A stretch of DNA of 64,000 nucleotides from Planctomycetota bacterium. Lineage in GTDB: Bacteria; Planctomycetota; PLA2; JAEUHO01. Position numbers and translations under genes: made by a program. Of this stretch, positions 11,137 to 32,856 are shown piece by piece. The stretch spans positions 1 to 64,000 of the forward strand of contig CBDCWP010000030.1 of NCBI GenBank assembly GCA_965223505.1. The letters run 5' to 3'. The notes under the pieces were generated by a model that saw nothing but the letters and a program-made list of their open reading frames with translations, did not search any database and was not told where the DNA came from. Each line of letters begins with the position of its first letter. The first letter of the stretch is position 1.

Positions 11137-11213
11137 GTAGGGGCAGCCCTTGTGGCTGCCCAACCCGGGACGCCAGGACACGCCCAATTGGGCGACCACG
11201 AGGTCGCCCCTAC
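11137..11213. repeat. Inverted doublet of GTAG-type REP-like palindromes (BIME/REPIN-like)
   Basis: GTAG-GGGCAGCC-cttgt-GGCTGCCC (11137-11161) and GGGCGACC-acga-GGTCGCCC-CTAC (11190-11213). Confidence 0.85.
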
Positions 11214-14200
11214 AAACGCGCGCCCTTCCGGTACGCCCCCACGCCCAGCACGACGAACGCGCCGAGGATCAACACCAGGACCGCGATCCGGCCCGGCACC
11301 GAGATCGACGCGTCGCTCGCCTCGATCGTGATCGGCGCGCCGGCGCGGACGCTGCGGAAGTAGTACACCTTGCCGATCTTCGGCAACGGCACGTCCACGC
11401 CCATGAGGCCGACCTTGCCCTTCACGTCGTCCGCGGTCGTGCTGTGCCCGGCACCGCCACCGCCCGCGGCGGTCACATCCCAAGCGGAGTGCATCTCGCG
11501 GGATCCTCCGTCACCGCCGCCGGCAACACCCTCTCCACCTCCGCCGCCGATGTCGACCGGGTCATACGCGATGCCGCGATCCGGCATGCCCATGGCCGTC
11601 AGACCCAAGTTCGCGAGGGGGTTGCCGCGCACCGTCGGCCCGCCCTCGAGCAAGCCCGCGAACGAGCTGTTGTACGTCGACGTGTAGTCGAGCAGCTGGT
11701 CCGCCAGCTGCTGATGCTTGACGTTCTCGCCTTCGGCGCCGAACAGCATCTGTCCCTGGCCGAGCGCCGGCCGCCCTTCCTGCGCCACCTTCAGCCGCTC
11801 CACGAGCTGCGCGTTCGAGTCCAATGAGCGCGTCATGGCCGCCAGGGCAGTCGTCGCCCGCGACAGCCGGTCTTCTTCGCGCTGCGCATCGGGCGCCGTG
11901 CCGCGCTGTCGCGCAAGCGCCTGGCCGGCGCCGAGCTGGCCGTTGCGGGCCTGCTCTTCCGCGAGACGGCGATTGAGCTCCTTGAAGTTGGCCGCGTCGT
12001 ACCCCGCGGCATGTCGCTTCGCCGCCCGGATCTCGACGGCCTTCGTCTTGCCCACGTCGCCCTTCTGCTGCAGCTGCTTCGACTCCTGGTCCACACGAAT
12101 CGACTGCTCCAGCTTGCGGGCTTCGGCCTGATAGCGCGTCTTGAGCTCGCTCTCGATCTCGTTCTTGAGCGACAGGATGTCCTTGTTCGCCTTGCCCTTC
12201 TCGGGCGCGGCGTCGTTGAAGCGCCAGGCCCCGGCGTTCTTCGAGCCTTCGAACACGTTCTCCAGCGACCCGCCGGGCTCCGGCAGGTCGTTCGACACTT
12301 CGTCGAGCTGGATGAGGTTCGCGGCGTTCCCCCCGAACTCCTCTTGCAGCGGATTCACGCGCGACACGTCCGTGTTCGCGGAGATGAAGTCGACCGCGCA
12401 CCGGTTCTGCTCCTTGGCCCACTCCTGCTTGAGTTGGGCGATGTCGCGACCGAGTGTGATCGCCTCCTTGCCGTCGCCGGCCATCGCGTTCAGACGCTCC
12501 GCCTCCTGCAGCAGTACGTTCGCGTTCGTGCACGAGAAAAAGCGCTGCTCGAGCGTGCCCTTCTGTGCCACCTCGAGGAGCTTGCGCGTCTCGCGCAGCG
12601 CCACCTCGGCGAGGTCGGCGGCGACGTCGGCCTGCGCGGTGCGGCTCATCGTCGTGTCGAACTCGTACTCGTAGCCTTCCGGGACGTAGAGACGCACGAC
12701 CGTGCGGTCCACCTCGACCTGCTCTTCGACCTCGGGCAGCAGGATCTCCAGCGAGTCCCCTTCGTCGAGGTCGGCGCCGGCGCGCACGCGATACGTCACC
12801 GAGACCTGGTAGCCCGTCCCGCCCAGCGGAACCTTCGGCACGGGAATCAGGACGGTTCCGCCCGCGCCCGCCAGCGGCTTGATCGCCTTCCCCGCGGCCG
12901 TCCCGCCGTACAGGCGCGCGCCCTCCGGCAGTTTCAAGCGCAGGAACTGTCGTGAGCGGTTGAAGATGCGGTAGCTGACACGCATGCGCGCGTAGCCGTC
13001 GAGCCCGAGCACGACATCGGCAACCGACGCGAGGACGACGGCGGCCGCCTGTTCCTCGATCGAGAGACGCTCCGCCGTCACGCTCAGCACGTACGGCTTG
13101 CGCCCGACGAACTGATCCACGACGGCCTCCTGGCTGAGGCCGCGCGGGACGAACGGCAGGTCCGCCCACTCGGCCTTCTCCAGATCGCCCGCGAGCGGAC
13201 GCCGTACGACGCGTCCGTCGAGGAACGTCCGAACGAGCGAGAACCAGCGCGTCTCCCCCACCTGCTCGGGCTGCACGACACGTACCGCGCGGTCGGCCGC
13301 CCAGACCTGCGACACGGTGACCTCGATCAGGCCGTTGTGCCGCGACTGCAGCACGATGTCGTAGAGCGTGCCGGCCACGTCCTGGCCGTCGGCGCCGCGG
13401 CGCGTCACGACCTCCTCGCTGATCTCGCGCAGATCGCGAACGCGAATGACGTTGTTGACCTCGTGTCCCCCGTCCGGCAGGAAGAGCCGCAGCCGGTCGG
13501 TGGATCCGCGCGTGACGCGGAAGAGCACGAGGTGCTCGATGCGGTGCTCCTCGTCGCCGGGCGCGATCATCGAGACGACGACCGCCTCGCGCTCGAGGTC
13601 CGGCGTGCGCAGCACGACCGGCAGCGCGCCCGTCAGCGAGCGCTCCCAGGTGAACACGTGCGCGGCAGTGGCGCCGTCGACGTGCGGCGCGGCGCCGTTG
13701 TTGCGGCGAAGCGCCACCGACTTGAGGCCGGGCAGGGCGCCCGGTGACGGCTCGACGTCCGGCAGCGTGTAGAGCGTGAGCACGCCGCGGTCGCGCTGCG
13801 CGCCCACGAGCGACCAGCGCGGCACCGCGATCCCGTCGCGACGGCCGCCGAGGCGACGCTCCAGGAACACACGCACGGCGAGATCGCCGGCGCGCATATC
13901 GGTGTAGCGCACGAACAGGCGACGCTCGTCGCCTTCGCCCTGCAGCCACCATGTCGCCATGCCGCGGCTCTCGACGTCGCGCACCTCGTCGTCGCCGGGC
14001 AAGGCGAACTCGAGATGACCGATCTGGGTGCGATCCACGTGGACCGCGCCGTCCATGCGCGTGCGCACGCGGTCGTCGCCGAAGACGACCGCCAGCGTGG
14101 AGCTCAGCTCCATGCGCGGCTCGACGCGGCGAATCTGCAACGACAGGGACGCCGGACGCGCCGCGAAGGTCCACGCACCGACGACACGGCCGAGGCGGTC

Positions 14201-17200
14201 CGGGCCCGTCGACTGCTGATCGCGCGGACGGCCGGTGCGATGTACGCCGTTCTCGGCTTCGATGTCCACACGCGCCGTCGGCTCGGCGTTCACGACGACG
14301 ATGCCCCGCTCCCCGGTGGCGCCGGTGAGCATGGGGCCGACCAGCGTCTCGGTCCGCTCCGCCGCTTCGGACGCGCGGAACGTGCGTACGACCAGCGGGA
14401 CCGCACCCGTCGCGGGCTGCTGGAACACGAGCCGCAGCCGGTTCGGGTCGGCGACCGTCGTCTCCCAACGCACGACGTTGCGGCCTTTGGCCTCCAGCAC
14501 CCGGACGTCGTCGGGCATGCGCAGGTCCACGAACGGGGCCTTTCCTTGCAGCACGTGGACGATCATCCGCGTCACCGTCTCGGTGCCGTCGTTGCGCAGG
14601 CTGTGGACCGTGCGCGACTCGGCGCGGGTCACGACCGACGTCGGCAGCTCGTCCGCGCGGGGGTCGCGCAGGAAGACGTTCACGCGGCTCGCGCGGCCGA
14701 GATAGGCACGCGCGACGTAGCCCGTGTCGTCGTCCGCCTCGCCGAGCGTGGCGATGCGCCCGGCGCCCGACACCGACAGGTCGCCCTCGAAGTCGGCGTC
14801 GAGCACGTCGAGCGTGGCGCCGCCGAAGGACGGTACCTGGAAGCTGAACGCGCGGCCGTTCGGCTGGCGGGCCACGGGGACGCGGCACGCGAGCTCGAGG
14901 GTGTGGTCGCCCTGCGCTTCGAGGGGGACGAGATACAGGCCGTTCTCGAGCAGCAGCCGCACGGGCTCGCCGTCCAGCGACGCGGACGTGATCGCGAACC
15001 CGCCGAGCAGCATTCGCGCCACCTTCAGTCCTTCACCGCGCTTGGCGAAGCGCATGACGACGGTGCCCGTGGCCATCTGCTCGTCGACGGTGAAGCGGTA
15101 GCGCGCGTCGACCAGCGTGATGTAGCGACCGAGCGCGACGACGTCGGGGTCCTTCTCCGGATGCGCGGCCTTGTGCAGGCGCAGGTACGCCTCGAGCGGC
15201 AGGAAGACGCGGTCTTGGTCGTCGATCTCGCCGGGCTTGGCGGGGTCGTACGGAATGTAGACCTTGTCGGGGCCCTTGGCGTTCGGCACCGGCGGGCGCG
15301 GCTCGTCGGCGGAGACACTCGACGCCGTCGCCGTCAGCAGCGCGACACAGAGCATCGCCGCCGCGGGCGCCTTCACGCGCGTCATCCACGTGGCGATGGC
15401 GCGCAACGCGTAGAACGCGAACAGCGCCGTCGCGGCGTCGGCGAGCGCGCACACCAGCGTCGAGCCGCTCGAACCGAACATGAGCTGCACGGCGACGGCA
15501 AGCGCGATCGCCGCGGTCAGGAACAACGCCTTGCGCGCGCGGCTGCCCATCCCGAAGGCGATGCCCCCCGCGATGAACAGCAACACGAGCGCGGCGTAGC
15601 CGTGATTCGTCGAGGAGCGCTCCTCGAGCTCGATCGTCATCGTCCCGCCGGTGCCCATGCGCTGCGCGACCACCGTGTTGGGCGACAGCAAGACGGGAAC
15701 GTCGAGCGACAGCAGGCCCTTGCGCCGCGCGCCGGGGCTCTTCGGGCGGCCGGGCTGGGCGCCGAAGGGTGAGATGTCGCCTTCGCCGGACGGCCGTCCG
15801 CCCGCGCCCGCGCCCGCACGCATGGGGGCGCGCGGGTTCGGCAACGGCCCCTGGTTCGCCGCCGCCGCTTCGTCGCCGGGCGCCGGGTCGCCGGCGATCG
15901 GGGGACCGCCGCCGCCGTCTTCCCCGGCCGCCGCCGGGAAGTCCTCGCTCGGCATGTCCGACAAGCCCGGACTCGACTCGGGCTCCGGCGGCGCCACCGT
16001 GTTCGCCGGCGTCGTGGCGTCATCCATCTCCGGATGCGACTTCTTGCCGCCGATCACGCCGCGGATCTTGTCGCCGTCTTCGCCGGCCACGCGGCCCGAA
16101 CTTCGACGTCGAATGTCCTGGTAGCCGTCGCTTTCGGCACCCGATCCGGCGTGCGGGGCCTTCATGTGAGTCCGGGCTTGAATGAGCGCGGCGTCTTCCA
16201 TGATCACCGCCTCGACGTCGTAGTCGGCTCGAAACGATGCGCTCGGCGCCGACCACGTGTCAGGCTTGAAGACGCCCAGCAGGCTCGCCACCCACGGCGC
16301 GCGCGCGGGCGGCGCCTCGAGCGCGTGCTCGGTGAAATTGCCGCGCACGCCCTCGATCCGGAAGTTCGGCTCGAGCGCGACCTGCATGGACGTGTGCAGC
16401 ACCTCGAGGTTCGGAAACGTCGGCCCCGGCACGTCCACGCTTCCGGAGATGGCCTCGCCGAGGTTCGTCTCGTACGTGAGCGACGCCAAGGTGCGCGCGT
16501 TCTTGCTGCGCGCCGTCGGGATCGGGATCATGAGCGTGCCGTCGCCGCGGGTCAGCGGCTTCACGGGCTTGCCGTCGACGACGGCGCCGATGAGATCGCT
16601 TTGCGGCGGCAGCCGCACGTCGAGGAACTGACGGTCGACGTTGAACAAGACGACGTTGGCGCGTGTACGCAGCACGCCCTCGGTCGCCACGGCGGTGTGC
16701 AGCTCCACGCTCGTCGCGATCGCGTTGAGCACCGCTGCGCCGTCGTGCTTGGCGACGGACAGTGACAGCCCGTCGGCGCCGTCGGCCAGACGCAGCACCT
16801 CGAGCACCTGGAGCGGGTCGAGCGCGGCCTCCGCGGGAAGATCGGTCACGTCGAGCGTGCGCAGTCCCGGCCCCTCGGTGTTCGCGCGCACCTCGAGCCC
16901 GTCGGCGCGACGCACCACGAGCATGCGCTCCGAGCGCTCGAGCGGAACGCGCACGCCGACGGGGTGGTCGGCCGCGATCGTCCAGTCGTCCTCGGTCTGG
17001 TCCTCGTAGTACAGGACGCGCATCGTGTGCCGCCCGATCACGCGCTGCTTGAGGTCGACCTGCCAGCGCGTGTAGCCGGCCGGGACGTCGGCGGGCGCGC
17101 GATCGCCGGAGAGCGGATGGCTGGCCCGCAGCAGCGGCGTGACGAACTGGACGTCGTCCTGGGTCCACGCCGGCACGTCGACCAGGAGGCTGCGCACGCC

Positions 17201-19042
17201 GGCGCGCCGGATCTGGTGCACGACGACCGCTTCGGCCTGCAGCCGGCGGGGCGTCGGCACGAGCGCGGTCACGACATCGGCCTCGAGCACGGGCGTGTGC
17301 CGCTTGACGTCGAGCGTCAACGCGGGCGACGCACCGTCGAGTCGGTAGCCGTACAGCAGACCCGCCGCCGAAATGCCGCGCGCGGTCAGCTCGCCCGCAC
17401 CGACCGAGACGAGGTCGGCGTGCCCCTTCTCGACGACCTGGAACGCGGCGTCCGCGCCGATGGCGACCAGGCCCTCTTCCCGACCCGCGCCGGACGACGG
17501 CACGGGCAGCGAGACGGCGATGCTCGCGTCCTCGGGCACCCAGTCGGCGCGCGCCTGTTCGAACGTCGCCGCCAATGCGATCTCGCGCCCCGCGGGGACG
17601 CCGTTCGCGAGGCGGATCTCGAGCGTACCGTCGGCGCGCAGATCGTGGGCGAACCCGTCCTTGCGACCGTCGATCGTCAGGTCGCGAAGCTCGTAGCCCG
17701 TCGGGTACTTCGCGCTGAGCGAGAACACGGTGCCTTCCATGACACGATAGGTGGTGGTCGCGAGCAGCGTCTTCGCGGCTTCCGCGAGGTTGAGGTAGTA
17801 GGTGCTGACCGCGTCGAGGCGCAACGCGCCCGGCTCGAGGTTGAGCGCGAGCCGCGCGTCGGCGCCGGACAGCGCGTACCGGAAGATCGTCCCGTCGCGT
17901 TCGTCCTTCCGCGGCGCGACACGATGACCGCCTTCCACGACGACGTCGCGCGCGTTCACGTCCGGCGACACGCGCAGCGCGACCTGCGCGCGGTGCCGAA
18001 CGGCGTCCTGCACCGTCACGCGCGGGATCTCGATGCCCGGTCCGGCGGCGTAGCGCCGTTCGCCTCGAAGCTTCAGCTCGAGCCGGCCCAAGCGCGGCTT
18101 GTCCAGATCGACGACGACGCGCTGCCGGTCGTCACTGCGCCGGAAGCCCGTCACGCTGTTGCCGCCGAGGTCGTGGACGTTGAAGTCCTCGGGCACGCGC
18201 AACGTGAGCGCGTCGACCGCCGTGCGGAACACGTCCACCTGCACGATGACGTCGGCGTGGAGGATGCCGTCCTTCGGGCCGAACACCCCGTGGGTCTGCG
18301 TATCGAGGATCGGCGGACCGTCCACACCCTTGGCCGCGGGCGCGAACGCGAGGCGCAGCCGTCCTTGGCGGCCCGGGCGAACGCGCACGACCTTCGGGCG
18401 GCTGCCTTCGGTCTGCACGGTCACCGGCGGCCCTTCGCCGGCGATGAACCCTTCGACGCCGGGCGGGAAGGTGACCGCCAACGCCATGGCCGAAGCCGGC
18501 GGCACGACGACGTCCAGGAAGCGGCCCTCGCCCTTGCGCGCGTACGTCGCGCTCGCCGTGACCGTGACGTCGCGCGATCCGGGACCGTCGAAGCGAATCC
18601 GCGGACGGCCCTTGAACTCCTCGTAGCGACCGCCCGAGGCGCCCTCGCGGCCGGCGATCTCGATGGACTCGAGCGCGATGCCCCGCAGCGGGAATCCGAC
18701 GGAGCGCGGGCCGTCGGCCAACACGGTGGCGGCGTAGCGAAGCGAGAGGCGCGCGGCCTTCTCGGCGGTGAGGTCCATCGAACCTTCCGCCGAAACGAGG
18801 GCGCCGTCCACGGGCGGCTCGGCCGCGAGCCTCTTCGCGCGCGCTTGCGCGGCGTCGAGCAGGCGCCGGTACTCGGCGTAGTTGAGCACGACGCCCTTGC
18901 GATCGGCCTTGAGCAGGACGTCGAGCTCCCCCACCGGAACGTGGACGAGCTCGGACGGCTCGTTCTCCTCGTCGGCGAACGTCGGCGCGCCAAAGGCCGC
19001 GACGGCCGCGCACGCGAGCCATGCGAAGCGGCGGGCGATCAC
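11210..19042 (-). CDS. Giant membrane-anchored hypothetical protein, 2610 aa, two homologous modules
   Basis: GTG 19042 after GGAGG, overlapping the upstream stop (GTGA); signal peptide ..APTFA-DE; central bundle of hydrophobic helices; C-terminal TM; internal duplication of motifs. Confidence 0.85.
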   Translation of the reverse strand: MIARRFAWLACAAVAAFGAPTFADEENEPSELVHVPVGELDVLLKADRKGVVLNYAEYRRLLDAAQARAKRLAAEPPVDGALVSAEGSMDLTAEKAARLSLRYAATVLADGPRSVGFPLRGIALESIEIAGREGASGGRYEEFKGRPRIRFDGPGSRDVTVTASATYARKGEGRFLDVVVPPASAMALAVTFPPGVEGFIAGEGPPVTVQTEGSRPKVVRVRPGRQGRLRLAFAPAAKGVDGPPILDTQTHGVFGPKDGILHADVIVQVDVFRTAVDALTLRVPEDFNVHDLGGNSVTGFRRSDDRQRVVVDLDKPRLGRLELKLRGERRYAAGPGIEIPRVTVQDAVRHRAQVALRVSPDVNARDVVVEGGHRVAPRKDERDGTIFRYALSGADARLALNLEPGALRLDAVSTYYLNLAEAAKTLLATTTYRVMEGTVFSLSAKYPTGYELRDLTIDGRKDGFAHDLRADGTLEIRLANGVPAGREIALAATFEQARADWVPEDASIAVSLPVPSSGAGREEGLVAIGADAAFQVVEKGHADLVSVGAGELTARGISAAGLLYGYRLDGASPALTLDVKRHTPVLEADVVTALVPTPRRLQAEAVVVHQIRRAGVRSLLVDVPAWTQDDVQFVTPLLRASHPLSGDRAPADVPAGYTRWQVDLKQRVIGRHTMRVLYYEDQTEDDWTIAADHPVGVRVPLERSERMLVVRRADGLEVRANTEGPGLRTLDVTDLPAEAALDPLQVLEVLRLADGADGLSLSVAKHDGAAVLNAIATSVELHTAVATEGVLRTRANVVLFNVDRQFLDVRLPPQSDLIGAVVDGKPVKPLTRGDGTLMIPIPTARSKNARTLASLTYETNLGEAISGSVDVPGPTFPNLEVLHTSMQVALEPNFRIEGVRGNFTEHALEAPPARAPWVASLLGVFKPDTWSAPSASFRADYDVEAVIMEDAALIQARTHMKAPHAGSGAESDGYQDIRRRSSGRVAGEDGDKIRGVIGGKKSHPEMDDATTPANTVAPPEPESSPGLSDMPSEDFPAAAGEDGGGGPPIAGDPAPGDEAAAANQGPLPNPRAPMRAGAGAGGRPSGEGDISPFGAQPGRPKSPGARRKGLLSLDVPVLLSPNTVVAQRMGTGGTMTIELEERSSTNHGYAALVLLFIAGGIAFGMGSRARKALFLTAAIALAVAVQLMFGSSGSTLVCALADAATALFAFYALRAIATWMTRVKAPAAAMLCVALLTATASSVSADEPRPPVPNAKGPDKVYIPYDPAKPGEIDDQDRVFLPLEAYLRLHKAAHPEKDPDVVALGRYITLVDARYRFTVDEQMATGTVVMRFAKRGEGLKVARMLLGGFAITSASLDGEPVRLLLENGLYLVPLEAQGDHTLELACRVPVARQPNGRAFSFQVPSFGGATLDVLDADFEGDLSVSGAGRIATLGEADDDTGYVARAYLGRASRVNVFLRDPRADELPTSVVTRAESRTVHSLRNDGTETVTRMIVHVLQGKAPFVDLRMPDDVRVLEAKGRNVVRWETTVADPNRLRLVFQQPATGAVPLVVRTFRASEAAERTETLVGPMLTGATGERGIVVVNAEPTARVDIEAENGVHRTGRPRDQQSTGPDRLGRVVGAWTFAARPASLSLQIRRVEPRMELSSTLAVVFGDDRVRTRMDGAVHVDRTQIGHLEFALPGDDEVRDVESRGMATWWLQGEGDERRLFVRYTDMRAGDLAVRVFLERRLGGRRDGIAVPRWSLVGAQRDRGVLTLYTLPDVEPSPGALPGLKSVALRRNNGAAPHVDGATAAHVFTWERSLTGALPVVLRTPDLEREAVVVSMIAPGDEEHRIEHLVLFRVTRGSTDRLRLFLPDGGHEVNNVIRVRDLREISEEVVTRRGADGQDVAGTLYDIVLQSRHNGLIEVTVSQVWAADRAVRVVQPEQVGETRWFSLVRTFLDGRVVRRPLAGDLEKAEWADLPFVPRGLSQEAVVDQFVGRKPYVLSVTAERLSIEEQAAAVVLASVADVVLGLDGYARMRVSYRIFNRSRQFLRLKLPEGARLYGGTAAGKAIKPLAGAGGTVLIPVPKVPLGGTGYQVSVTYRVRAGADLDEGDSLEILLPEVEEQVEVDRTVVRLYVPEGYEYEFDTTMSRTAQADVAADLAEVALRETRKLLEVAQKGTLEQRFFSCTNANVLLQEAERLNAMAGDGKEAITLGRDIAQLKQEWAKEQNRCAVDFISANTDVSRVNPLQEEFGGNAANLIQLDEVSNDLPEPGGSLENVFEGSKNAGAWRFNDAAPEKGKANKDILSLKNEIESELKTRYQAEARKLEQSIRVDQESKQLQQKGDVGKTKAVEIRAAKRHAAGYDAANFKELNRRLAEEQARNGQLGAGQALARQRGTAPDAQREEDRLSRATTALAAMTRSLDSNAQLVERLKVAQEGRPALGQGQMLFGAEGENVKHQQLADQLLDYTSTYNSSFAGLLEGGPTVRGNPLANLGLTAMGMPDRGIAYDPVDIGGGGGEGVAGGGDGGSREMHSAWDVTAAGGGGAGHSTTADDVKGKVGLMGVDVPLPKIGKVYYFRSVRAGAPITIEASDASISVPGRIAVLVLILGAFVVLGVGAYRKGARL

Positions 19043-22000
19043 GCGGCACCTCCTTCGGGCGCCGGCGTCGCGTCGGGCGGCAGTCCGCCGTCGGGCGGCG
19101 TGTCCTGTGCGTCCGGTGTGCTGGGAGGCGCAGCGTCCTTCGCGGCGGCGCGCGCGGCGCGCTGCGCGGTGCGGCGCTTGTGCCACCAGAGCGCGGCATG
19201 AATCACCGCCGCGAGGATGACCGCATAGAGCATGGTGCTCAGCACCTGCGCCGTGCCGGGGCCGGCGGGAATCAGCAGCGCCAACAGCACCAACACGATC
19301 GCGATGAACGCGTAGCCCGGCGTGAAGCCGAACTTGGCGCCGGACTTCGCCAGCAGCCACGCGCCGACGAACGCGATGATGCACCACATGAACTTCCAGA
19401 ACGCGAAGAACGTCGGCGACGCGCCGGTGATCTCGACCGTGCCGGTCCCTACGCGACCGTGGAACAGGAACTCGCGCCCGTCGTGACGCGTCTGGAACGG
19501 GCTCTGGTAGCCGTGCATGAGCCGGTTCAAGTCCGTGCGCTTCCCGGCAGGCCGGGTCGCGAACGCGCCGGACATCGTCGCGAGCAGGTCGCCCGCCCAC
19601 GAGCGCGGCGCGTCGATGCGCGCGACGCTGCCGGCGAACGACGTGTACTCGCGGTCGATCGGCACGAAGACGCGCCAGGTGAGGATGTCGGACTTCGCGG
19701 CCATCGGCTCGGGGGACGCGATGGTCAGCGTCTCGAACATCGCGCCGCTGCGCTCGACCTCGTGGTCGAAGACCAGCTCGACGAGGAACGCCTCGTCCTT
19801 CCCGCGCCCGGTGTCGAGCCGGATCAGCACCGTGCCGTTCTCGCCCCGGCGCGGCGTCTCCGCCGTTCCGGCCACGCGTACGGCCCGCAGCTTGGCGTCG
19901 CGCGGTAGCGAGAGCTCCAGGAACTGCACGTTGTTGTTGCGCACGGTGAGGTAGGCGTCGGTGGTGGCGCGGCCCTCGATCGGCACCACGGTGTCGAGGT
20001 GCATGTGCGAGACGACGAGCGCGGCGACCTCCTCGTAGTCGTGCTTGGTCACGCGCACGCCGAGGCGGTACTCGGGGTCGTAGGAGCGGAACGCGAGGAA
20101 CGTCTGCGGGTCGCGCAGGTGCGCCGGCAGCTCGCGCGCGTCGATCTCCTCGATCTTGTCGACGACGTCGGGGTCGGGATCGACCCGCAGCAGCGCCTCG
20201 CGCTGGATCGCCGCGAAGAAGACGGTGTTCGGCAGCGGCTCGGAGCCGACGTCGAGCGGTACGAACGACGGCAGCGCGACGGCGCGCGTCGCGCCGCTCT
20301 CGAGCGTGTCTTCCGGCAGGTCGTCGATCACCAGCGGGACGACGATCGTCCCCGTGCGCGGCGCCGGCAGCTTGACCGTCCAGATGCCGCGCGGCGTCCA
20401 GTCGTCGGGCGCGCCCTCGGGGCGGTCCTCTTCGACGGGATCGAGCAGCTGCATGCCGGTCGTGCCGAGATGCACGCGCTCACCGAGCGAGAGCGGCGCC
20501 GCGAACCGGAACGTGTCGACGCCGCGGAACGAGACGGTGTAGGTGATCGTCGCGCCGAGCTTCGTGCGGTCGGGCTCGAGCCGCGCGGTCGTCGCAACCG
20601 AGGCGGTGATCGTCGGGTCCTTGCGCTCGAGGCCGAGCGTGAGCGCGAGCGCGCCTTCGCGATGCTCGAACCGATAGACGAGCGGCAGCGGCCCTTCGCC
20701 CGTCGGCTGCAGCGGGGGCGGCTCGACGGCCGCCGCGGCGGCGCTGTCCAACGGCGTCAGCCCTTCCTTCTTGATCTCGCGCCGGTCGAGCGAGGACTCG
20801 ATGTGCACGGCGACGTAGCCGCGCACGTGCGTCGCGCCGCGCAGCACGGGCAGCGGAATCTCCTGGTCGAGCCCCTTGCCCTCTTCTTCCGGAACGGCGA
20901 TTCGCATGCGGCCGTCGATCGTGATCGTCGTGGCGCCGAGCAGCCGGTCGCGGAACGTGACGCGCAGCGTGCCGTCGACCTGCGCGTAGTCGTCGAGATC
21001 GACACCGTGCACCTTTAGATTGGTGATCTCGAGCCCGGCGGGCAGATCGAAGTCGACGCCGAAGATGCCGGCCCGTTCGACGCGCACGTTGGCGATCGTT
21101 CGCACTTCCAGCGACTCGGGACGAATGCCGACCCGGTTGCCGACCTGCGCGGTGATGCGCGGCTCGAGCGCGTCGACCTGCATGGTCATCTCGCCCGGTC
21201 GCGCGGGGAAGCGGTACGAGAACGCGCGGCCCGCAAGCTTGGCTTGCAGGTCCTTGGGCATTTCCTGCATGTCCACCTGGATGAGACCGGGCGTCGCGCG
21301 CGGCTCGACCTTCACCCCTTCGGCGGCCTGTACGCGCAGGAACCCGCTCTCGCGCTCCATGCCGTCGAGCGCCGCCAGGGGCGCGGTGATCGTGACCGGC
21401 GTCGGCGGCAGCGGCCGCTCCAGACCGATCTCGACCGTGTACTTCTCCTTCGCGGCCTCGCGCAGCTCGACCGTGATCTTGTCGTTGGCGGGGCTGCGCA
21501 CCCACGTGCGAATGCCGTCGCCCTGCACGTAGAGCACCACCGCGTCGTCGGGGACGACGACGTCGAACGTCGCAAGCGGCGCGCGGAGAATCGACAGGTC
21601 GGCGCGGAACGTGGTCCGCACGACGCCGCGGTCCACGCGCACCATGACGCGCTCGCTCGCGAAGACGAGGGGATCGATGGTGGGTCCGTCGTCGGGCTTG
21701 CGCCGCCACTCGAGCTTGACGTTGCTCACCGGACCGAGAAATGCGAGCAGCTCCGTCTTGCCGGTCGCGGTCACGCGTGTCGAAGACGCAAGGCGCGGCG
21801 TGATGGACACCTCGGTGTCGCCGCCGGGCACCTCGACCGAGAGGCGCGCGAGCGGCACGGGCGGCAAGGAGAACTCGGCCGCGTGCGTGTCGCCCTTCGC
21901 GGGCGCGCCGGCGCGCAGCACGAGGTCGACCGTGCGTCGCCCGGGATTCTCGAGCAGGAGGTCGTAGCCCTCTTTCGTGGGCACGAGCAACGCGGGCTCG

Positions 22001-22503
22001 CCGTCGATGGTCGCGGCTTCGACGCCGATGCCCCGGAAGTTCAGCGGGACGCGCTGCCACCCCTTGGCCAGCACCTCGACGTCGACCTCGGCCTCGAATC
22101 GAATCATCTCGCCCGTCGCGACGCCGGTGTACTTCGCCGAGCGCACCGCGGCGGCGACCGGCGGCGTGCTGTTGTCGGGCACGACGCGGTACGCGCGGTC
22201 CCAGAGCTTGCGGAACTGGTCGTACGGCAGGAAGACGCCCTCGCCTTCCTTCTCGAAGACGTCCTTGAGGTCCTTGAAGGGCACGTAGAGCTTGTGGACC
22301 TTCGGCTTGCCGTCGCCCTCGGTTCCGGACTCGCCTTCGTCGCCCTCGTCCCCCTTGGGCTCTTCCGGCGCCGGCGCGGGCTCGTCGCCCTTTTCGTCTT
22401 CGTCGGCGAACGCGCTTGGAGCGAAGCCTGTCGTCGAGGAGATCGCGAATGCCGACAGACACAGCAGGGCGGCCACGACGCCGCACCAGTACGAGGTACG
22501 CAT
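19039..22503 (-). CDS. Large membrane-anchored hypothetical protein, 1154 aa, homologous to both modules of the downstream gene
   Basis: ATG 22503 after GGAG; signal peptide ..PSAFA-DE; three C-terminal TM helices; shared motifs YVP..GVFLPY and N...QFL...LP. Confidence 0.85.
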   Translation of the reverse strand: MRTSYWCGVVAALLCLSAFAISSTTGFAPSAFADEDEKGDEPAPAPEEPKGDEGDEGESGTEGDGKPKVHKLYVPFKDLKDVFEKEGEGVFLPYDQFRKLWDRAYRVVPDNSTPPVAAAVRSAKYTGVATGEMIRFEAEVDVEVLAKGWQRVPLNFRGIGVEAATIDGEPALLVPTKEGYDLLLENPGRRTVDLVLRAGAPAKGDTHAAEFSLPPVPLARLSVEVPGGDTEVSITPRLASSTRVTATGKTELLAFLGPVSNVKLEWRRKPDDGPTIDPLVFASERVMVRVDRGVVRTTFRADLSILRAPLATFDVVVPDDAVVLYVQGDGIRTWVRSPANDKITVELREAAKEKYTVEIGLERPLPPTPVTITAPLAALDGMERESGFLRVQAAEGVKVEPRATPGLIQVDMQEMPKDLQAKLAGRAFSYRFPARPGEMTMQVDALEPRITAQVGNRVGIRPESLEVRTIANVRVERAGIFGVDFDLPAGLEITNLKVHGVDLDDYAQVDGTLRVTFRDRLLGATTITIDGRMRIAVPEEEGKGLDQEIPLPVLRGATHVRGYVAVHIESSLDRREIKKEGLTPLDSAAAAAVEPPPLQPTGEGPLPLVYRFEHREGALALTLGLERKDPTITASVATTARLEPDRTKLGATITYTVSFRGVDTFRFAAPLSLGERVHLGTTGMQLLDPVEEDRPEGAPDDWTPRGIWTVKLPAPRTGTIVVPLVIDDLPEDTLESGATRAVALPSFVPLDVGSEPLPNTVFFAAIQREALLRVDPDPDVVDKIEEIDARELPAHLRDPQTFLAFRSYDPEYRLGVRVTKHDYEEVAALVVSHMHLDTVVPIEGRATTDAYLTVRNNNVQFLELSLPRDAKLRAVRVAGTAETPRRGENGTVLIRLDTGRGKDEAFLVELVFDHEVERSGAMFETLTIASPEPMAAKSDILTWRVFVPIDREYTSFAGSVARIDAPRSWAGDLLATMSGAFATRPAGKRTDLNRLMHGYQSPFQTRHDGREFLFHGRVGTGTVEITGASPTFFAFWKFMWCIIAFVGAWLLAKSGAKFGFTPGYAFIAIVLVLLALLIPAGPGTAQVLSTMLYAVILAAVIHAALWWHKRRTAQRAARAAAKDAAPPSTPDAQDTPPDGGLPPDATPAPEGGAA

Positions 22504-22581
22504 GAGATGCACTCCCGGGGGACCTACAATCAGACCCAACCAGTCCGAAGAGGTTCAACGGTGAGAGTAGGAGTGTGCTGC

Positions 22582-23673
22582 GTGGCAAATCGCAAAAGCT
22601 GTGCAAAGGGGACCGGCGGACGCCGGTTTGCTCGGATCTGCACGCTTTTGCTCCCGCTTTGCGTCGGCGTTCTCGGCGGCGGCTTCCACGACGTCGAAGC
22701 GGGTCCGCGAGAAGCGCGCGAGGCGATCATCAGCGCGCTCGAGCACCTCACCACCGAGGCCCGCAAGCGCCGAGATCGCCTCGCGGCGCAGTGCCTCGCG
22801 GAGATCAACTCGCTCGTCTCGGGAACGCCGCACGCGGACCTCGACGCGATCCGGCGCGAGCTGCGTAGCGGGTTCGACCCCGAGCGAGCGGACTCGCGGT
22901 GGCTCGATCCGGGTCTGAAGCCCGTGGTGGAGAACGCGCGCGTGCTCGCGGCCGGCGAGAGCGCGATGGACCGCTCCGACGGCGGCATGGCCGTGTCCAT
23001 CGCCGAGACGCTGTCGGCCGTGCGGCGTCTGAACCAGGTTCGCTCGGCGTGCGGATTGAAGCCCGTACGCTTCGACGCGAAGCGTTCCGCCAAACGCGTG
23101 CTGCAAGCGCGCCGCCGGGATCCCGCGTGCCGCAAGGCGAGGCTCGATCGACACGTCGCGCTCCTGCTGCGAGACGTCTCGGCGCGCGCGGCGCTGCTCG
23201 ATCCCGACGACAAGGGCGTCGCGATGGGCGTGTGGGAGCACGAGGACGACGTCGTGAGCTGCATCGCCATGAGCGGCAACAAGGTCGTGATTCCGGCCGA
23301 GCCGCGTACCGTGCTCTTCCCCTGGCGCGGCGCGACGAACGTGCCGCGCACGTGTCCCGCGGACGACGCGCTCAAGCAGGCGCTCGCGCCCGACGCCACG
23401 GCGGCGGGCCCCTGGATCACGTTGCTGTCGTATCGCGCCGGCGAGAAGCTCGCGGTCACCAGCGCGGTGCTGCGGATCCCGCCCGGTGAGGTCGTGCCGG
23501 TGCGGCACTTCGTCGAGAGCGCGGCCGGTCATGGCCTGCCGCGCACGACGGACGCCGTTCTGCTGCTCCCGCTTGCGAAGCTCGAACCCGGCGTCGAGTA
23601 CGAGGTCGTGATCGAGGGCGCGTCGGGCGCGGCGCCGTTCGCGACCACGTGGACGTTCACGACCGGCCCGTGA
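22582..23673 (+). CDS. Hypothetical protein with a degenerate CAP/SCP-like domain and C-terminal beta-sandwich
   Basis: AGGAG then GTG 22582; hydrophobic N-terminal segment; LNQVRSACGLKPVRFD, ALLDP...VAMG, FPWRGATNVP, TWTFTT. Confidence 0.6.
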   Translation: MANRKSCAKGTGGRRFARICTLLLPLCVGVLGGGFHDVEAGPREAREAIISALEHLTTEARKRRDRLAAQCLAEINSLVSGTPHADLDAIRRELRSGFDPERADSRWLDPGLKPVVENARVLAAGESAMDRSDGGMAVSIAETLSAVRRLNQVRSACGLKPVRFDAKRSAKRVLQARRRDPACRKARLDRHVALLLRDVSARAALLDPDDKGVAMGVWEHEDDVVSCIAMSGNKVVIPAEPRTVLFPWRGATNVPRTCPADDALKQALAPDATAAGPWITLLSYRAGEKLAVTSAVLRIPPGEVVPVRHFVESAAGHGLPRTTDAVLLLPLAKLEPGVEYEVVIEGASGAAPFATTWTFTTGP

Positions 23674-23707
23674 CCCCGCTCCCGCGTCCGTTGGTACGGT
23701 GATCGAC

Positions 23708-25645
23708 ATGGGAAGGCGTTGGTCGATCATCGGGCTCGGGGTCCTGCTCGCGCTGGGCCTGTGGGCCTACGTTGCGTGGGACGCGTCGACGAGGGGCTAC
23801 GAAAGCGCGGGCGACGAAGCGGCGGACGAGAGGACGGCCGGCCCTCAGCTTGCCGCGAACGCACGACGCAAGCCCGACGACGACGCGCCGACGGCCCAAA
23901 CGTTCGAGGACACGCCGGTAACCGTGACGCACGACACCGGGGAACGGTTCGGCATCGTGTTCACCGCGACCCGGAAGAAGCAGCGGCACCCGGTCGAGGA
24001 GATGTTCTCGAGCGTTCTCGAGCTCGACCCGCCGCCGCAGGAGGGCTACCCGGTTCGCGTGTACTGGCACGCGCCGGAACCGATCGGGGGCCAGGTGTTG
24101 GAGGGTGTGACGGGCGAGGACGGGACGTGCCGGCTCGCGCCGGTCACCTTCCCGAAGGTTCCGTATCACTTGAGCGGCGCAGTGCGGCTCGCGGTCGAAG
24201 GCGGCGGCGGCGCGTGGTCCGAGATCACGATGTTCCTCGATCCTGCGAGGGTCGTGCGCACGGCCGGCGCCGCCGAAGGCGACCCGCCGACGCGCTGGTT
24301 CCCGATCGGCTGGTCCGACTGGAAGGGCGCCCCGGTGTCCGGACGTGTCGTCGACACGAACGGCGAGCCGGTGCGCGGCTTGCGGGTCGGCGAGAGCCGT
24401 TTCGGGAGCACGGGGACGACGGACGCCGACGGGCGCTTCTCCATGCGCTGTCCCACGGGCGAGGTGACGCTCATGGGCGACGCCAGTGAGTCGTACTTCT
24501 ACTTCCACGGCAGGCCCGCCGAAGACGTCGCGTTCCCGCCGGCGACGCTGGGGACGATCTTCGTACCCGAGGACGGCGTGGAGAACCTCCGCCTGGAGCT
24601 GCCGGAGCGCACGCGCGTCCGCGGGCACGTACGGCTCGCCGACGGCGCGCCGGCGTTTCAAACCAATGTCTCGCTTCGCGCGCCGGATGGAAGGACCACA
24701 CGGACGACGACGGACGACCAAGGACGGTTTCACTTCATCGGACTGAAGCCCGCGCTTCGATACGACGTACTCATCGACGCTCTCGCGGAAGCGAAGGCCA
24801 TGGTGTCCGCCGGGGACGAGGACGTGGAAATCGTGCTCGACCGGCACGTGCTGCACGTCGTGCTGATCGACGCGGCGTCCGAACGCGAAGTCCCCGGCGA
24901 GGTGCGCATCTTCGACGGCAACCGCACGCCCGGAACGAAACTGCAGGTCGTGGGGTGGGCGCGCGGATACGGCGTCGTCGAGCGCCCCTACGTGATGAAG
25001 AAGGAGCCTTTGCTGCAGACGCTGCGACTGACGCTACCCCGCACGGCCCCCGACGGCCTCGTGCGCGTGCGCTGTATCGGCGCCGACGGCGCACCGGTGG
25101 CGCGGCCGCCGCTCGAGGTGATCGTCCCGAAGACGGACTTCGTGCTGCAGCCGCGCTGGCACGCCGAGGACGGCTGGTACGTGACACGCGACCTCGGCCC
25201 CGGCAACGTGACGATCCGGACCGGCGGATCGGACCCGTACGAGCAGATCGTCCTCGGTGCGCCCGGAACGGGGAATGCACGCTTCGTGCTCCACACGGCC
25301 AAGACGGTGACCCTCCCGACGAGCGGCGGACTGGACGTCGAGCTTCGGCCCGACACCGGCGGGGCGATCGGGTTCCGCATCTCGACGCGTGGCAGACGCA
25401 GCTACCTCCGGACGTACCCGGAGCTGACCAACGAAGCCGGCGAGAAGGTCGACTATCAGAACTACCGCTACAGCGGCGGTCGTTGGTTTCCCCACAACCA
25501 CTTCCATGGCGCGAGCGAGACGAGCGCCGTCCCCGCCGGCGTCTACCGGCTACAGCTCACGTTCGAAGGCGAGCAGGTCGATCGCGTCATCCGCATCGAC
25601 AAAGGAAGGGTGACGCCGGTCGAGCTGGACCTGGACGCCGACTGA
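23708..25645 (+). CDS. Membrane-anchored carboxypeptidase-regulatory-like (beta-sandwich repeat) protein
   Basis: N-terminal TM; repeats VSGRVVDTNGEPV..TTDADGRF, VRGHVRLADGAP..TTDDQGRFHF. Confidence 0.8.
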   Translation: MGRRWSIIGLGVLLALGLWAYVAWDASTRGYESAGDEAADERTAGPQLAANARRKPDDDAPTAQTFEDTPVTVTHDTGERFGIVFTATRKKQRHPVEEMFSSVLELDPPPQEGYPVRVYWHAPEPIGGQVLEGVTGEDGTCRLAPVTFPKVPYHLSGAVRLAVEGGGGAWSEITMFLDPARVVRTAGAAEGDPPTRWFPIGWSDWKGAPVSGRVVDTNGEPVRGLRVGESRFGSTGTTDADGRFSMRCPTGEVTLMGDASESYFYFHGRPAEDVAFPPATLGTIFVPEDGVENLRLELPERTRVRGHVRLADGAPAFQTNVSLRAPDGRTTRTTTDDQGRFHFIGLKPALRYDVLIDALAEAKAMVSAGDEDVEIVLDRHVLHVVLIDAASEREVPGEVRIFDGNRTPGTKLQVVGWARGYGVVERPYVMKKEPLLQTLRLTLPRTAPDGLVRVRCIGADGAPVARPPLEVIVPKTDFVLQPRWHAEDGWYVTRDLGPGNVTIRTGGSDPYEQIVLGAPGTGNARFVLHTAKTVTLPTSGGLDVELRPDTGGAIGFRISTRGRRSYLRTYPELTNEAGEKVDYQNYRYSGGRWFPHNHFHGASETSAVPAGVYRLQLTFEGEQVDRVIRIDKGRVTPVELDLDAD

Positions 25646-27808: not shown

Positions 27809-28648
27809 TCAGGCGCCGTGCTTCTTCAGCAGCAGCTTGTTCTCCTCGATCCAGGCCTTGAGCTCTTCGGCCTTCTTCATCTCGACACCGGTGATCTGCT
27901 TCACGGTGTTCATCATGGCCTCGAACGCCTTCGGCCTGGCCTTCTTCGCACGTGACCCGTACTTGGCCTTCCACTTGGCCTTCGCCGCGTTGGCGTCGCG
28001 GTTGCCGGCGGCGCCGGTGTCGACCTTCACGGTCCCGCCCGACCAGCTCAGGCCGTCGGGATAGAAGTGGAACCACTCGAGGATGATCTTCAGCGAGCGG
28101 TACTCCATGTGCTCGCCGCACAGCTTGATCGTCACGATCGCGACGTCGTCGTGGTTGTGATCGATGAAGTCCTTGACCTGATCCCAGGACTTCTTGAAGG
28201 CGAGCTTGCCGACCGCCTCGATGGCGCAAACGAGCACGGCCGCCTCGAGGTCGATCTCCGCGGCTTCCTCGGGCGTGCTCGGCGTCTTGTTGCCGTAGTT
28301 CTTGAAGTTCTTCAGCCCCTGCAGGAGCGTCTTGGTCGCCGCGCTCGCCTCCGAGAGCTGGTTGCCGAGCCCCTGCGCCGCCATGGCCTTGAGCTCGACG
28401 TTCTGCTCGTTCAGGTAGATCTTGCGCAGCTGGGACTGGACCTTCTTGTGGCGGTGCATGCCGAGCCACTTGAGGATGCGAAGACGCTTGTCCATGTCGT
28501 CTTCGGCGTAGTCCTTCTTGAAGCGCGCCAGCGCCTCCTTGACCGTCTTGTCGTCGTGCGGCTTGGGCTTGTCCTTCTTCGCGATCGCGTCGGGCGCCGC
28601 GGCGAAACAGACGATCAACAACAGGGCAACGGTCACGGTCCAGCGCAT
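27809..28648 (-). CDS. Secreted HEAT-repeat-like helical protein, 279 aa
   Basis: GGAGG RBS; signal peptide ..DAIA; KAMAAQGLG and CAIEAVGKL HEAT-like pairs; VKQITG..W..W/IEEN C-terminus. Confidence 0.7.
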   Translation of the reverse strand: MRWTVTVALLLIVCFAAAPDAIAKKDKPKPHDDKTVKEALARFKKDYAEDDMDKRLRILKWLGMHRHKKVQSQLRKIYLNEQNVELKAMAAQGLGNQLSEASAATKTLLQGLKNFKNYGNKTPSTPEEAAEIDLEAAVLVCAIEAVGKLAFKKSWDQVKDFIDHNHDDVAIVTIKLCGEHMEYRSLKIILEWFHFYPDGLSWSGGTVKVDTGAAGNRDANAAKAKWKAKYGSRAKKARPKAFEAMMNTVKQITGVEMKKAEELKAWIEENKLLLKKHGA

Positions 28649-28778
28649 GCGGGCCTCCGCGTCGGGAGCTACGATGAATCCTTCAGGATAGATGCGGTCT
28701 GCACCGCTCTCAAGCCGGACCGCCCAGGGGTTGTGCCCCTGGCTGATCGCTCCGGCTTCTGCGCCGAATCGGCGGTGC

Positions 28779-29882
28779 CTACGACGCGCGCCGGCGGGGC
28801 TCTTCGGGCCGCATCAACGCGTCGACCACGCGACGGAACCAGGACCTGCGCTCGTCGGCGCGGACGCGCCCCGGGCACGGCACCGTGTCGAGCAGCGCCC
28901 GCACGATCTTGTCCGCGCCGACGTCGTCCGCCTCGGCCGCGTACGAGAGCACCAGACGGTGCCGGAAGATGGCGGGCGCCAGCGCCTGCATGTCCTCGAA
29001 GTCGGGCTGGCTGCGCCCGCGCAAGCAAGCGCGCGCCTTCGCCCCGTTGACCAACGCCTGCGCGGCGCGTGGTCCCACGCCCCACTCGAGATACTCACGC
29101 ACGACGTCGGGCGCGGTCTCGCTGCCGGGACGCGATGCCTGCGCCAGCGCGACGGCGTAGTGGACGAGCTCGCGTCGCACCTCGGTGCGATAGACCGCGT
29201 CGGCGATCTCGAGGAACTCCTCGCGCGTGACGATCGGTTCGAGCTTCGTGTCGTCGCCCAACGCCGTCAGCCGGGCGATGCGCTTCTCGTCGTCCCACGA
29301 CGGGTAGTCGAGGTGCACCTTGAACAGGAAACGGTCCATCTGCGCGGCGGGCAACGGATACGTGCCCTCCTGCTCGATGGGGTTCTGCGTCGCGAGAACG
29401 ATGAACGGATCCTCGAGCTCGCGCGACACGCCGAGGCTGGTGACCTGGCGCTCTTCCATCGCCTCCATGAGCGCGGCCTGGGTCTTGGGCGGCGCGCGGT
29501 TGATCTCGTCGGCGAGGACGAGGTTCGCGAAGACCGGTCCTTTGGCGAACTTGAAGAGGCGCTCGCCCGTCGAGTGGTCCTCGAGCAGGTACTCACTGCC
29601 CGTGATGTCGGACGGCATGAGGTCGGGCGTGAACTGGATGCGCGAGAATTTCATGTCGAGCAGCTCGGACACGGTTGACAGGAGCAGGGTCTTGGCGAGA
29701 CCGGGCACGCCCTCGAGCAACGCGTGACTGCGCGTGAGCACCGTGATGAGCACTTGCTCGACGACGTCGTCGAGCCCGACGATCCGGCGGGCCGTCTCCG
29801 CCCGAAGCCTCTCCCCCGTTCGGTACACACGCTCCACGGTGGCGCGTTCGCGGTCGATGGTGTTGGCCGGGGGCGTGCTCAC
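28779..29882 (-). CDS. MoxR family AAA+ ATPase
   Basis: LLEGVPGLAKT, RIQFTPDLMPSDITG, LADEINRAPPKTQAALMEAM, ATQNPIEQEGTYPLP. Confidence 0.95.
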   Translation of the reverse strand: MSTPPANTIDRERATVERVYRTGERLRAETARRIVGLDDVVEQVLITVLTRSHALLEGVPGLAKTLLLSTVSELLDMKFSRIQFTPDLMPSDITGSEYLLEDHSTGERLFKFAKGPVFANLVLADEINRAPPKTQAALMEAMEERQVTSLGVSRELEDPFIVLATQNPIEQEGTYPLPAAQMDRFLFKVHLDYPSWDDEKRIARLTALGDDTKLEPIVTREEFLEIADAVYRTEVRRELVHYAVALAQASRPGSETAPDVVREYLEWGVGPRAAQALVNGAKARACLRGRSQPDFEDMQALAPAIFRHRLVLSYAAEADDVGADKIVRALLDTVPCPGRVRADERRSWFRRVVDALMRPEEPRRRAS

Positions 29883-29940
29883 AGGTGCCGGAGTCTACCC
29901 GCGGCTTCAGGCAGGGTCGGGGATTGTCCGCGAACCACCG

Positions 29941-32718: not shown

Positions 32719-32856
32719 GGGTTCCATGGTAGAGGGACCCTGCAACCGTGCTTTTCGGTTCAGTTGAAAGGGAGGGCCTCCTTTACCGTTCAGGTGAGTT
32801 GGACGATCATCGGGATTCGGGCTCGCGGCGGAGGCGGGTCGCAGAGGAGGTACGGA

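Follow-up and report, generated by a model that had tools for sequence, protein, structure and literature searches.

A coupled gene pair of a planctomycete encodes three homologous giant modules of an undescribed envelope protein family

Introduction

The membrane-anchored β-sandwich chains Ost1, PIG-T and NOMO act as non-catalytic platforms or spacers within the endoplasmic reticulum lumen, and provide an analogy, not evidence, for the bacterial proteins described here. These are encoded by a gene pair on the reverse strand of a 64,000-nucleotide stretch of a Planctomycetota genome (assembly GCA_965223505.1, contig CBDCWP010000030.1, positions 1 to 64,000), called here ‘the window', and comprise three homologous modules, called here ‘the trio'. 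Unlike Ost1 (ribophorin I), the modules have about five sandwiches instead of two and one to four membrane helices, they form three paralogs in fixed order, and they are bacterial and predicted to be periplasmic. They contain the N-terminal-type β-sandwich domain found in M1 aminopeptidases and LTA4H, and also in TAF2, the M61 N-domain and the ITIH1 VIT domain. However, in contrast to M1 aminopeptidases and LTA4H, the modules lack a thermolysin-like catalytic domain, a Peptidase_M1 hit and an HEXXH motif, and their sandwich is tandemly repeated and membrane-anchored.

The envelope of bacteria of the Planctomycetota, Verrucomicrobiota and Chlamydiota (PVC) group is characterized by an enlarged periplasm, an invaginated inner membrane and crateriform pits, and to our knowledge almost none of its structural proteins has been identified. 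The trio belongs to a very large family for which neither Pfam nor NCBIfam holds a model, and its three-paralog layout appears older than the split of the PVC phyla. With about 400 kDa of protein in the periplasm, each set costs the cell much, which implies strong selection.

Two bacterial systems invite comparison. As in the Bat aerotolerance operon, a MoxR gene lies nearby, and the envelope products have a signal peptide, a β-rich body and a C-terminal anchor; unlike in that operon, the modules contain no BatD domain and no DUF58, BatA or BatB gene accompanies the trio. An identification of the modules as BatD was tried and rejected (no PF13584 hit; the BatD-domain open reading frame (ORF) of the genome lies elsewhere, on contig C40, and gives an hhalign probability of 0.2 against family profile A3). 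The cytochrome b–c1 precursor FbcH of Bradyrhizobium is a polyprotein split at an internal signal peptide. The second gene of the pair resembles it in joining two membrane subunits into one chain across an internal segment that looks like a signal peptide, but the proteins are unrelated and cleavage of the gene 2 product is a prediction.

A third comparison concerns extracytoplasmic function (ECF) sigma factors. In the group descriptions of Casas-Pastor et al. 2021 (PMC7826278), the anti-sigma factors of groups ECF226 and ECF289 carry VWA and DUF3520 (YfbK_C) domains, the reported hosts of ECF226 being Acidobacteria, Planctomycetes and Verrucomicrobia. The same arrangement, an ECF sigma gene followed by a gene for a one-pass vWF_A-VWA-YfbK_C anti-sigma factor, stands directly upstream of relatives of the modules, a likeness of architecture and taxa. 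The giant proteins downstream are not part of those group descriptions, and the pair of the window's genome is not adjacent to the trio. The absence of any Pfam domain from the giants would explain why a Pfam-based context analysis of ECF groups missed them.

Results

Two coupled genes and three homologous modules

Gene 1 (19039..22503, reverse strand; 1,154 residues) encodes module 1, and gene 2 (11210..19042, reverse strand; 2,610 residues) encodes modules 2 and 3 fused in a single frame. The translations bear out the coordinates, strand and lengths that an earlier note, written from the DNA sequence by a model, had assigned to both. Of the long frames here, in a window of 70% GC, only genes 1 and 2 distribute GC over codon positions as real genes do. 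At their junction (19039..19056, reverse strand) the stop of gene 1 and the GTG start of gene 2 share the sequence GTGA, an overlap that the same note had reported, and an AAGGAGG Shine–Dalgarno sequence within the end of gene 1 sits 5 nt ahead of that GTG. Scanning the two operon ends for sigma-70 sites and terminators gave none on the operon's strand.

Consistent with the proposal of three colinear modules, BLASTP relates module 1 to module 2 (E value of 8e-28, 23% identity across 865 residues), module 1 to module 3 (E value of 2e-17) and module 2 to module 3 (E value of 4e-10). Within gene 2 the module boundary falls at residues 1219/1220, so that module 2 spans residues 1–1219 (15386..19042, reverse strand), while module 3 spans residues 1246–2610 (11213..15307, reverse strand). 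Weaker off-diagonal matches, such as that between residues 279–413 of module 1 and 433–560 of module 3 (E value of 1e-5), indicate that neighbouring domains inside a module are related to one another.

The N-terminal signatures on which the proposal was founded (LYVPFKDL..GVFLPYDQFRKL, VHVPVGEL..GVVLNYAEYRRL and VYIPYD..VFLPLEAYLRL) are all found in the translations, as are a further set of motifs running across the three modules (RNNNVQFLELSLP, FNVDRQFLDVRLP and FNRSRQFLRLKLP) and, in gene 2, KGLLSLDVPV and VGLMGVDVPL. The motifs RESGFL, REEGLV and GERGIV, read in the earlier note as marks of tandem units, are present too, but they represent one conserved position per module and are not repeated inside a module. 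The real repeat unit is a β-sandwich domain of about 160–200 residues, as revealed by the off-diagonal BLASTP matches and by fold matches.

Topology of the modules

Gene 1 encodes, in order, a signal peptide, an acidic linker, a conserved N-terminal stretch named here ‘N-motif', about five β-sandwich domains, a β-hairpin, three transmembrane helices and a K/R-rich cytoplasmic tail. Module 2 shows a similar layout, with a signal peptide, an N-motif at residues ∼32–66 and a β-sandwich body extending to residue ∼982, followed by a Gly/Pro/Ala-rich linker (residues 983–1105), a hairpin and three transmembrane helices (residues 1147–1213). In module 3 the N-motif occupies residues 1262–1300 of the gene 2 product and the β-sandwich body extends to residue ∼2165; a helical extension rich in K, E, Q and N (residues ∼2170–2535), a hairpin and one transmembrane helix (residues 2578–2606) complete the chain.

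A Kyte–Doolittle scan detects an N-terminal signal peptide on both genes and a C-terminal membrane anchor in all three modules, as had been supposed, but the anchors differ by module. That of module 1 consists of three helices (residues 1032–1106), that of module 2 of its three helices plus a signal-peptide-like fourth segment (residues 1227–1245), and that of module 3 of its single helix. The module tails and the loop behind the module 2 helices are rich in K and R. Together, the Sec-type signal peptides, the C-terminal anchors and the K/R-rich tails and loop indicate that the bulk of all three modules faces the periplasm and is anchored in the inner membrane, which supports the placement first suggested for them.

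The extension of module 3 (residues 2170–2535; 11438–12535, reverse strand) has a composition of its own, with K, N and Q at 4.9, 6.0 and 6.6% against 1.5, 1.6 and 3.0% in the body, a richness unusual for a genome of 70% GC. In the ESM Atlas it matches only unnamed, mostly Verrucomicrobiota clusters (score of 0.90).

Module 1 is a chain of β-sandwich domains preceded by a conserved motif

The AlphaFold2 model of module 1, computed with a 65-sequence alignment, has a mean predicted local distance difference test (pLDDT) value of 85.8 and a predicted template modelling score (pTM) of 0.52. It shows an all-β body (residues 115–1029; 19417..22161, reverse strand) followed by three long helices (residues 1030–1124; 19132..19416, reverse strand), which correspond to the transmembrane helices of the hydrophobicity scan. 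The body comprises five domains, at residues ∼115–270, 278–445, 448–626, 630–825 and 826–1029. Fold matches of the module include the N-domain of M1 aminopeptidases and LTA4H, Ost1/ribophorin I, the VIT domain of ITIH1 and the N-domain of M61, while none was found for the domain at residues 630–825 by itself.

Conservation in the family peaks ahead of this body. Over 65 module-1-type sequences, the best-conserved 30-residue segment (residues 72–101) reaches 3.02 bits per column, compared with 2.27 for the next best and domain means of 1.6–2.05. It falls within the N-motif (residues 67–105; 22189..22305, reverse strand), which occurs in all three modules and is the lowest-confidence part of the model (pLDDT 48–66). 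A search of Protein Data Bank (PDB) sequences with the 51-residue N-motif returned nothing below an E value of 1.9. A motif so highly conserved and yet unplaced in a monomer model is what an inter-chain contact would be expected to look like; the N-motif may thus be a contact between subunits or with a partner.

An ancient and retained triplication

A HMMER search of 1.84 billion cluster representatives retrieves 3505 sequences at E ≤ 0.001 and 796 at E ≤ 1e-30, with lengths that peak near 1,100 and 2,300–2,800 residues. The genome of the window holds no second copy, all four of its family matches falling within the locus. Among 41 relative genomes, 31 have a match (16/24 of the same taxonomic family and 11/11 of the sister family). 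The profile matches 55 of an even sample of 121 Planctomycetota genomes (E ≤ 1e-20), 35 of them with a full-length module-1-type match, and 11 of 101 genomes from the phylum of a Verrucomicrobiae carrier (the Verrucomicrobiota sample), three of which have the trio.

Among 538 candidate stretches, 297 relatives were confirmed, and the best 80 were retained as trio loci. By record name, carriers include Pirellula, Stieleria bergensis, Thermoguttaceae, Phycisphaerae, Verrucomicrobiae, Chthoniobacteraceae, Lentisphaeria and Victivallales. When the family hidden Markov model was run on the long frames of the window and these 80 loci, 76 stretches contained one or more qualifying modules; three or more are present in 44 of these, and the other 32 are cut by contig ends. 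The gene pair is indeed conserved as a unit, in line with the expectation raised for it: 40 of the 44 complete stretches have gene 1 and a fused module 2–3 gene, the other four (L044, L075, L093 and L101) having three separate frames. In most of the 44, module 2 starts within ∼25 nt of the stop of gene 1.

In a FastTree phylogeny of 60 modules from 20 loci, picked from the complete loci for taxonomic spread, the modules of positions 1, 2 and 3 each form one clade (support values of 100, 99 and 99). Position labels change twice along the tree, the minimum possible, against a mean of 28.6 changes with shuffled labels. Moreover, the three clades branch in parallel internally, Verrucomicrobiota and Lentisphaerota included. 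The branches are long and composition is uneven, and the three-clade result, deep and clean as the split is, needs confirmation with mixture models. Position-specific clades that branch in parallel indicate that the triplication is older than the split between Planctomycetota, Verrucomicrobiota and Lentisphaerota, and that each copy has been retained since. This long retention of each copy is the chief reason to regard the copies as non-redundant and most likely to work together.

One complete trio (L077) comes from a Chloroflexota-labelled bin, in a record titled uncultured Anaerolineales, and nests in the Lentisphaerota/Phycisphaerae clade in all three module clades; this position suggests a mis-binned contig or a transfer.

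The module 2–3 junction resembles an internal signal peptide

The junction of modules 2 and 3 (residues 1220–1245 of the gene 2 product; 15308..15385, reverse strand) begins with a K/R n-region, continues with a hydrophobic core and ends in SVSA followed by DEPRPP. All 37 aligned fused orthologs show the same three parts, namely a K/R-rich stretch almost devoid of acidic residues, a hydrophobic core of 12–20 residues, and a small-x-small motif with D, E, Q or G behind it. Sec signal peptides are built in this way. The module 3 N-motif starts ∼15–50 residues beyond the segment in these orthologs, and the predicted mature starts of the three modules of the window are alike (AFA-DEDE, TFA-DEEN and VSA-DEPR). 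In the separate-frame loci, module 3 has an open frame of its own, which in L075 opens 18 nt past the end of the module 2 frame. Judging from these sequence features, gene 2 probably encodes a polyprotein that is split at an internal signal peptide. The junction segment would re-export module 3, be cut by signal peptidase I and stay on module 2 as a fourth helix. Fixing subunit ratios through such a probable polyprotein would be rare among bacteria.

Association with ECF sigma factors and VWA anti-sigma factors

In 12 of the 80 trio loci, a co-oriented gene for a zf-HC2-vWF_A-VWA-YfbK_C anti-sigma factor ends just before gene 1; an ECF sigma gene ahead of it was confirmed in the two such loci that were checked (L052 and L065). 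The association recurs over deep branches and extends to a two-module variant of the family, an ORF of ∼2,100–2,400 residues whose matches begin at profile positions 75–182 and which apparently misses the N-motif. ECF sigma gene, VWA anti-sigma gene and giant gene follow each other in that order in all 12 variant loci fetched (L112–L123; for example, L113:6467-16701 and L112:4494-17085), which come both from Planctomycetota and from the sample of the Verrucomicrobiota phylum. By sequence clustering, the sigma-like ORFs of all 12 loci group together, as do the anti-sigma ORFs of 11, with L112 added by Pfam; domain content was verified by Pfam for six ORFs of each kind, distributed over seven of these loci. 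Stieleria bergensis has both a variant operon and a trio. In the 121-genome sample, 15 genomes have a co-oriented YfbK_C hit less than 1 kb upstream of a family member, which is of module-1 type in 5 and of variant type in 10. The link would give the so far context-less groups ECF226 and ECF289 a candidate target.

In the window's genome (G000), contig C35 carries an ECF sigma gene with a vWF_A-VWA-YfbK_C gene (YfbK_C E value of 1.1e-60) behind it (L126:9593-12696, reverse strand), and this pair could act on the trio in trans. A comparison of the sequences upstream of gene 1 and of the C35 sigma gene found only GC-rich 7-mers in common, and no convincing promoter word. A second YfbK_C hit of the same genome lies on contig C28.

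The trio belongs to no described family

Searches of family databases confirm the earlier note's failure to recognize a catalytic motif or a characterized homolog. In Pfam, gene 2 matches no family at E ≤ 1 and gene 1 gives only a sub-threshold TadE hit inside a transmembrane helix; NCBIfam returns no family for either protein, and each of 34 individually scanned homologs is without a Pfam family. The family profile (102 members) finds nothing better among PDB sequences than an E value of 0.1, limited to the transmembrane region, and matches in the ESM Atlas are unnamed clusters only. Neither protein contains an HEXXH motif, a CxEQ thioester motif or a lipobox, and the periplasmic parts of the modules hold almost no cysteine. 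Those homologs that bear any name in their source are all called ‘hypothetical protein'. Full-text literature searching, judged mostly from listings and abstracts, brought up no description of the trio, and the genes of two transposon-sequencing papers, on Planctopirus limnophila (PMC10632474) and Verrucomicrobium spinosum (PMC12283558), could not be matched to the trio family for want of homolog locus tags.

Discussion

Taken as a whole, these results lead us to favour, with a probability of about 0.55, a non-enzymatic, inner-membrane-anchored periplasmic scaffold of three subunits that is tied to envelope signalling. In the scheme proposed here, each subunit would be exported by a Sec signal peptide and would expose its conserved ∼40-residue N-motif, followed by about five β-sandwich domains of the Ost1/ribophorin-I or M1-aminopeptidase-N-domain type, while C-terminal helices would hold it in the inner membrane and a short basic tail would reach into the cytoplasm. 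In module 2, the three helices would lead into a short cytoplasmic loop and then into the internal signal peptide, through which module 3 would be exported anew and which signal peptidase I probably cuts. Translational coupling of gene 1 to gene 2, together with the fusion, would yield the three polypeptides in equal number at a single membrane site, and their assembly may provide the envelope with a structural or docking platform. In many lineages, an ECF sigma factor and an anti-sigma factor that spans the membrane and carries a periplasmic VWA-YfbK_C part would be linked to the production or state of this assembly; in the taxonomic family of the window, a MoxR ATPase would take that place instead.

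Several observations weigh against such a scaffold or leave it less secure. A pTM of only 0.52 makes the domain arrangement of module 1 uncertain, and chains of β-sandwiches are a common architecture; likeness of fold is uninformative on function. The case for a hetero-oligomer is solely evolutionary, drawn from the ancient position-specific clades, the fixed gene order, the translational coupling and the fusion. A cage, or a part in membrane shaping or transport, as the earlier note supposed, would be a further conjecture. For the internal cleavage, an AxA-type regular expression does not discriminate, as it matches 37/37 junctions where 29.6 are expected from the same stretches shuffled. The set is not universal, several genomes of 99–100% completeness having no copy at all, and the PVC cell plan thus does not require the trio as a core element. 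As for the signalling link, no sigma/anti-sigma pair is adjacent to the trio in the window, the only such pair examined in its genome, that of contig C35, has no family giant downstream, and ∼6 kb of opposite-strand genes separate MoxR from gene 1.

An alternative that we consider unlikely is that each module is an envelope protein in its own right, for instance a periplasmic spacer, a binding protein or an adhesin-like rod, which functions alone or as a homo-oligomer and is co-expressed with the others only as a result of tandem duplication. Family members do exist outside the trio, in the form of the two-module gene without a module 1 partner and of short proteins of ∼550–750 residues with the first two domains only. 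However, the position-specific clades predate the phyla, no swap or loss was seen in the 20/20 loci examined, and order, coupling and module 2–3 fusion are kept in 40/44 stretches, which is not normally the fate of redundant tandem duplicates. Somewhat more doubtful is an elaboration of the scaffold in which the modules and the VWA anti-sigma factor form an envelope-surveillance device restricted to PVC-type bacteria. A giant β-sandwich lattice of three subunits would stand on the inner membrane within the enlarged periplasm, the periplasmic VWA-YfbK_C domain would dock on the VIT-like first sandwich or on the N-motif in the manner of a split VIT–VWA pair, loss or distortion of the lattice would free the ECF sigma factor to rebuild it, and the polyprotein would fix subunit ratio and position. 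We regard as improbable that the trio is instead a client or structural partner of a chaperone-type MoxR–VWA system, comparable to the Bat operon, that would be assembled or remodelled by MoxR and a VWA protein. In close relatives of the window, MoxR and a HEAT-like gene directly precede gene 1, but a co-oriented MoxR gene upstream occurs in only 7/80 loci, all of the same taxonomic family. The pyrB, ParA and glycosyltransferase neighbours are conserved in that family as well, so that the adjacency of MoxR may be inherited synteny. Furthermore, MoxR and VWA genes occur together beside the trio in no examined locus, and no VWA gene was seen next to MoxR.

Two other explanations we judge to be very improbable. 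The modules might assist, as Ost1/ribophorin-like accessory subunits, a membrane enzyme with substrates in the periplasm, for instance a glycosyl- or peptide-transfer complex. Against this resemblance stand the lack of any sequence match to Ribophorin_I (PF04597) or another Pfam family and an aligned r.m.s.d. value of 21–22 Å, which means that single domains match and their arrangement does not. STT3 (PF02516) was not found in the 92.5% complete genome of the window, whereas a control search found it in 4 archaeal genomes, and no enzyme gene is conserved as a neighbour in 37 clustered loci; indeed, clustering of the upstream ORFs of these loci yields no universal neighbour of any kind. Were the modules truly distant kin of Ost1/ribophorin I, this would bear on the origin of that eukaryotic and Asgard translocon-associated subunit, but the present data do not indicate such kinship. 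Less credible still are periplasmic protease traps or peptide-binding guards of the α-2-macroglobulin type. The modules are long, inner-membrane-anchored chains of β-sandwiches, a structure of A2ML1 appears low among the Foldseek matches (rank 50), and the distant member P0164 carries an α/α-toroid-type domain (SQHop_cyclase_C, E value of 2.5e-11). Nevertheless, macroglobulin (MG/A2M) Pfam domains, a C[GLA]EQ thioester motif and any bait-region-like feature are all missing, and the sandwiches match the M1-N/Ost1 type and not MG domains.

Genomic context and atypical family members

The operon is on its own in the window; downstream of it, pyrB and pyrI are convergent with it. On the upstream side, a MoxR-type AAA+ ATPase gene (28779..29894, reverse strand; Pfam AAA_3 E value of 1.2e-59) and a HEAT-like gene with a weak HEAT_2 match (27809..28813, reverse strand), which lies beside MoxR in relatives too, are given here as context. 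Directly upstream of MoxR on the same strand, a long frame (29941-33843) combines ECF sigma regions 2 and 4 (residues 390–537) with an FGE-sulfatase domain (residues 708–1054); it may be two genes or one sigma-fused protein.

Between the HEAT-like gene and gene 1 lies a block of genes on the opposite strand. It contains one or two genes for CarboxypepD_reg-domain proteins (23699-27753, forward strand) and a gene divergent from gene 1 (∼22546-23673, forward strand), which starts ∼40–100 nt from it. The latter would encode a lipoprotein-like product of ∼375 residues with a hydrophobic N terminus (LLLPLCVG) and no Pfam match, and its GC distribution over codon positions is that of a real gene, unlike that of the minus-strand ORFs that overlap it. 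The block is absent from two related loci (L040 and L042) and looks like an insertion in the lineage of the window. A comparison of its CarboxypepD_reg genes with the corresponding neighbours in genome G029 found only that domain in common (E value of 0.001, 46 residues).

A Pfam scan of 19 atypical family members gave sub-threshold Por_Secre_tail and Ig-like hits, a CarboxypepD_reg domain in P0049 and an SQHop_cyclase_C domain in P0164. The last, a two-module member of 2,828 residues, has this extra α/α-toroid domain at residues ∼2340–2437 (E value as above), a position close to that of the K/E/Q/N-rich helical extension of module 3 in the window. The short relatives of ∼550–750 residues match the first two module domains only (profile positions ∼8–416); they include G078:C37:27028-28290, G107:C79:10055-11317, G127:C31:9735-10913 and P0049, in which the CarboxypepD_reg domain is added to these two.

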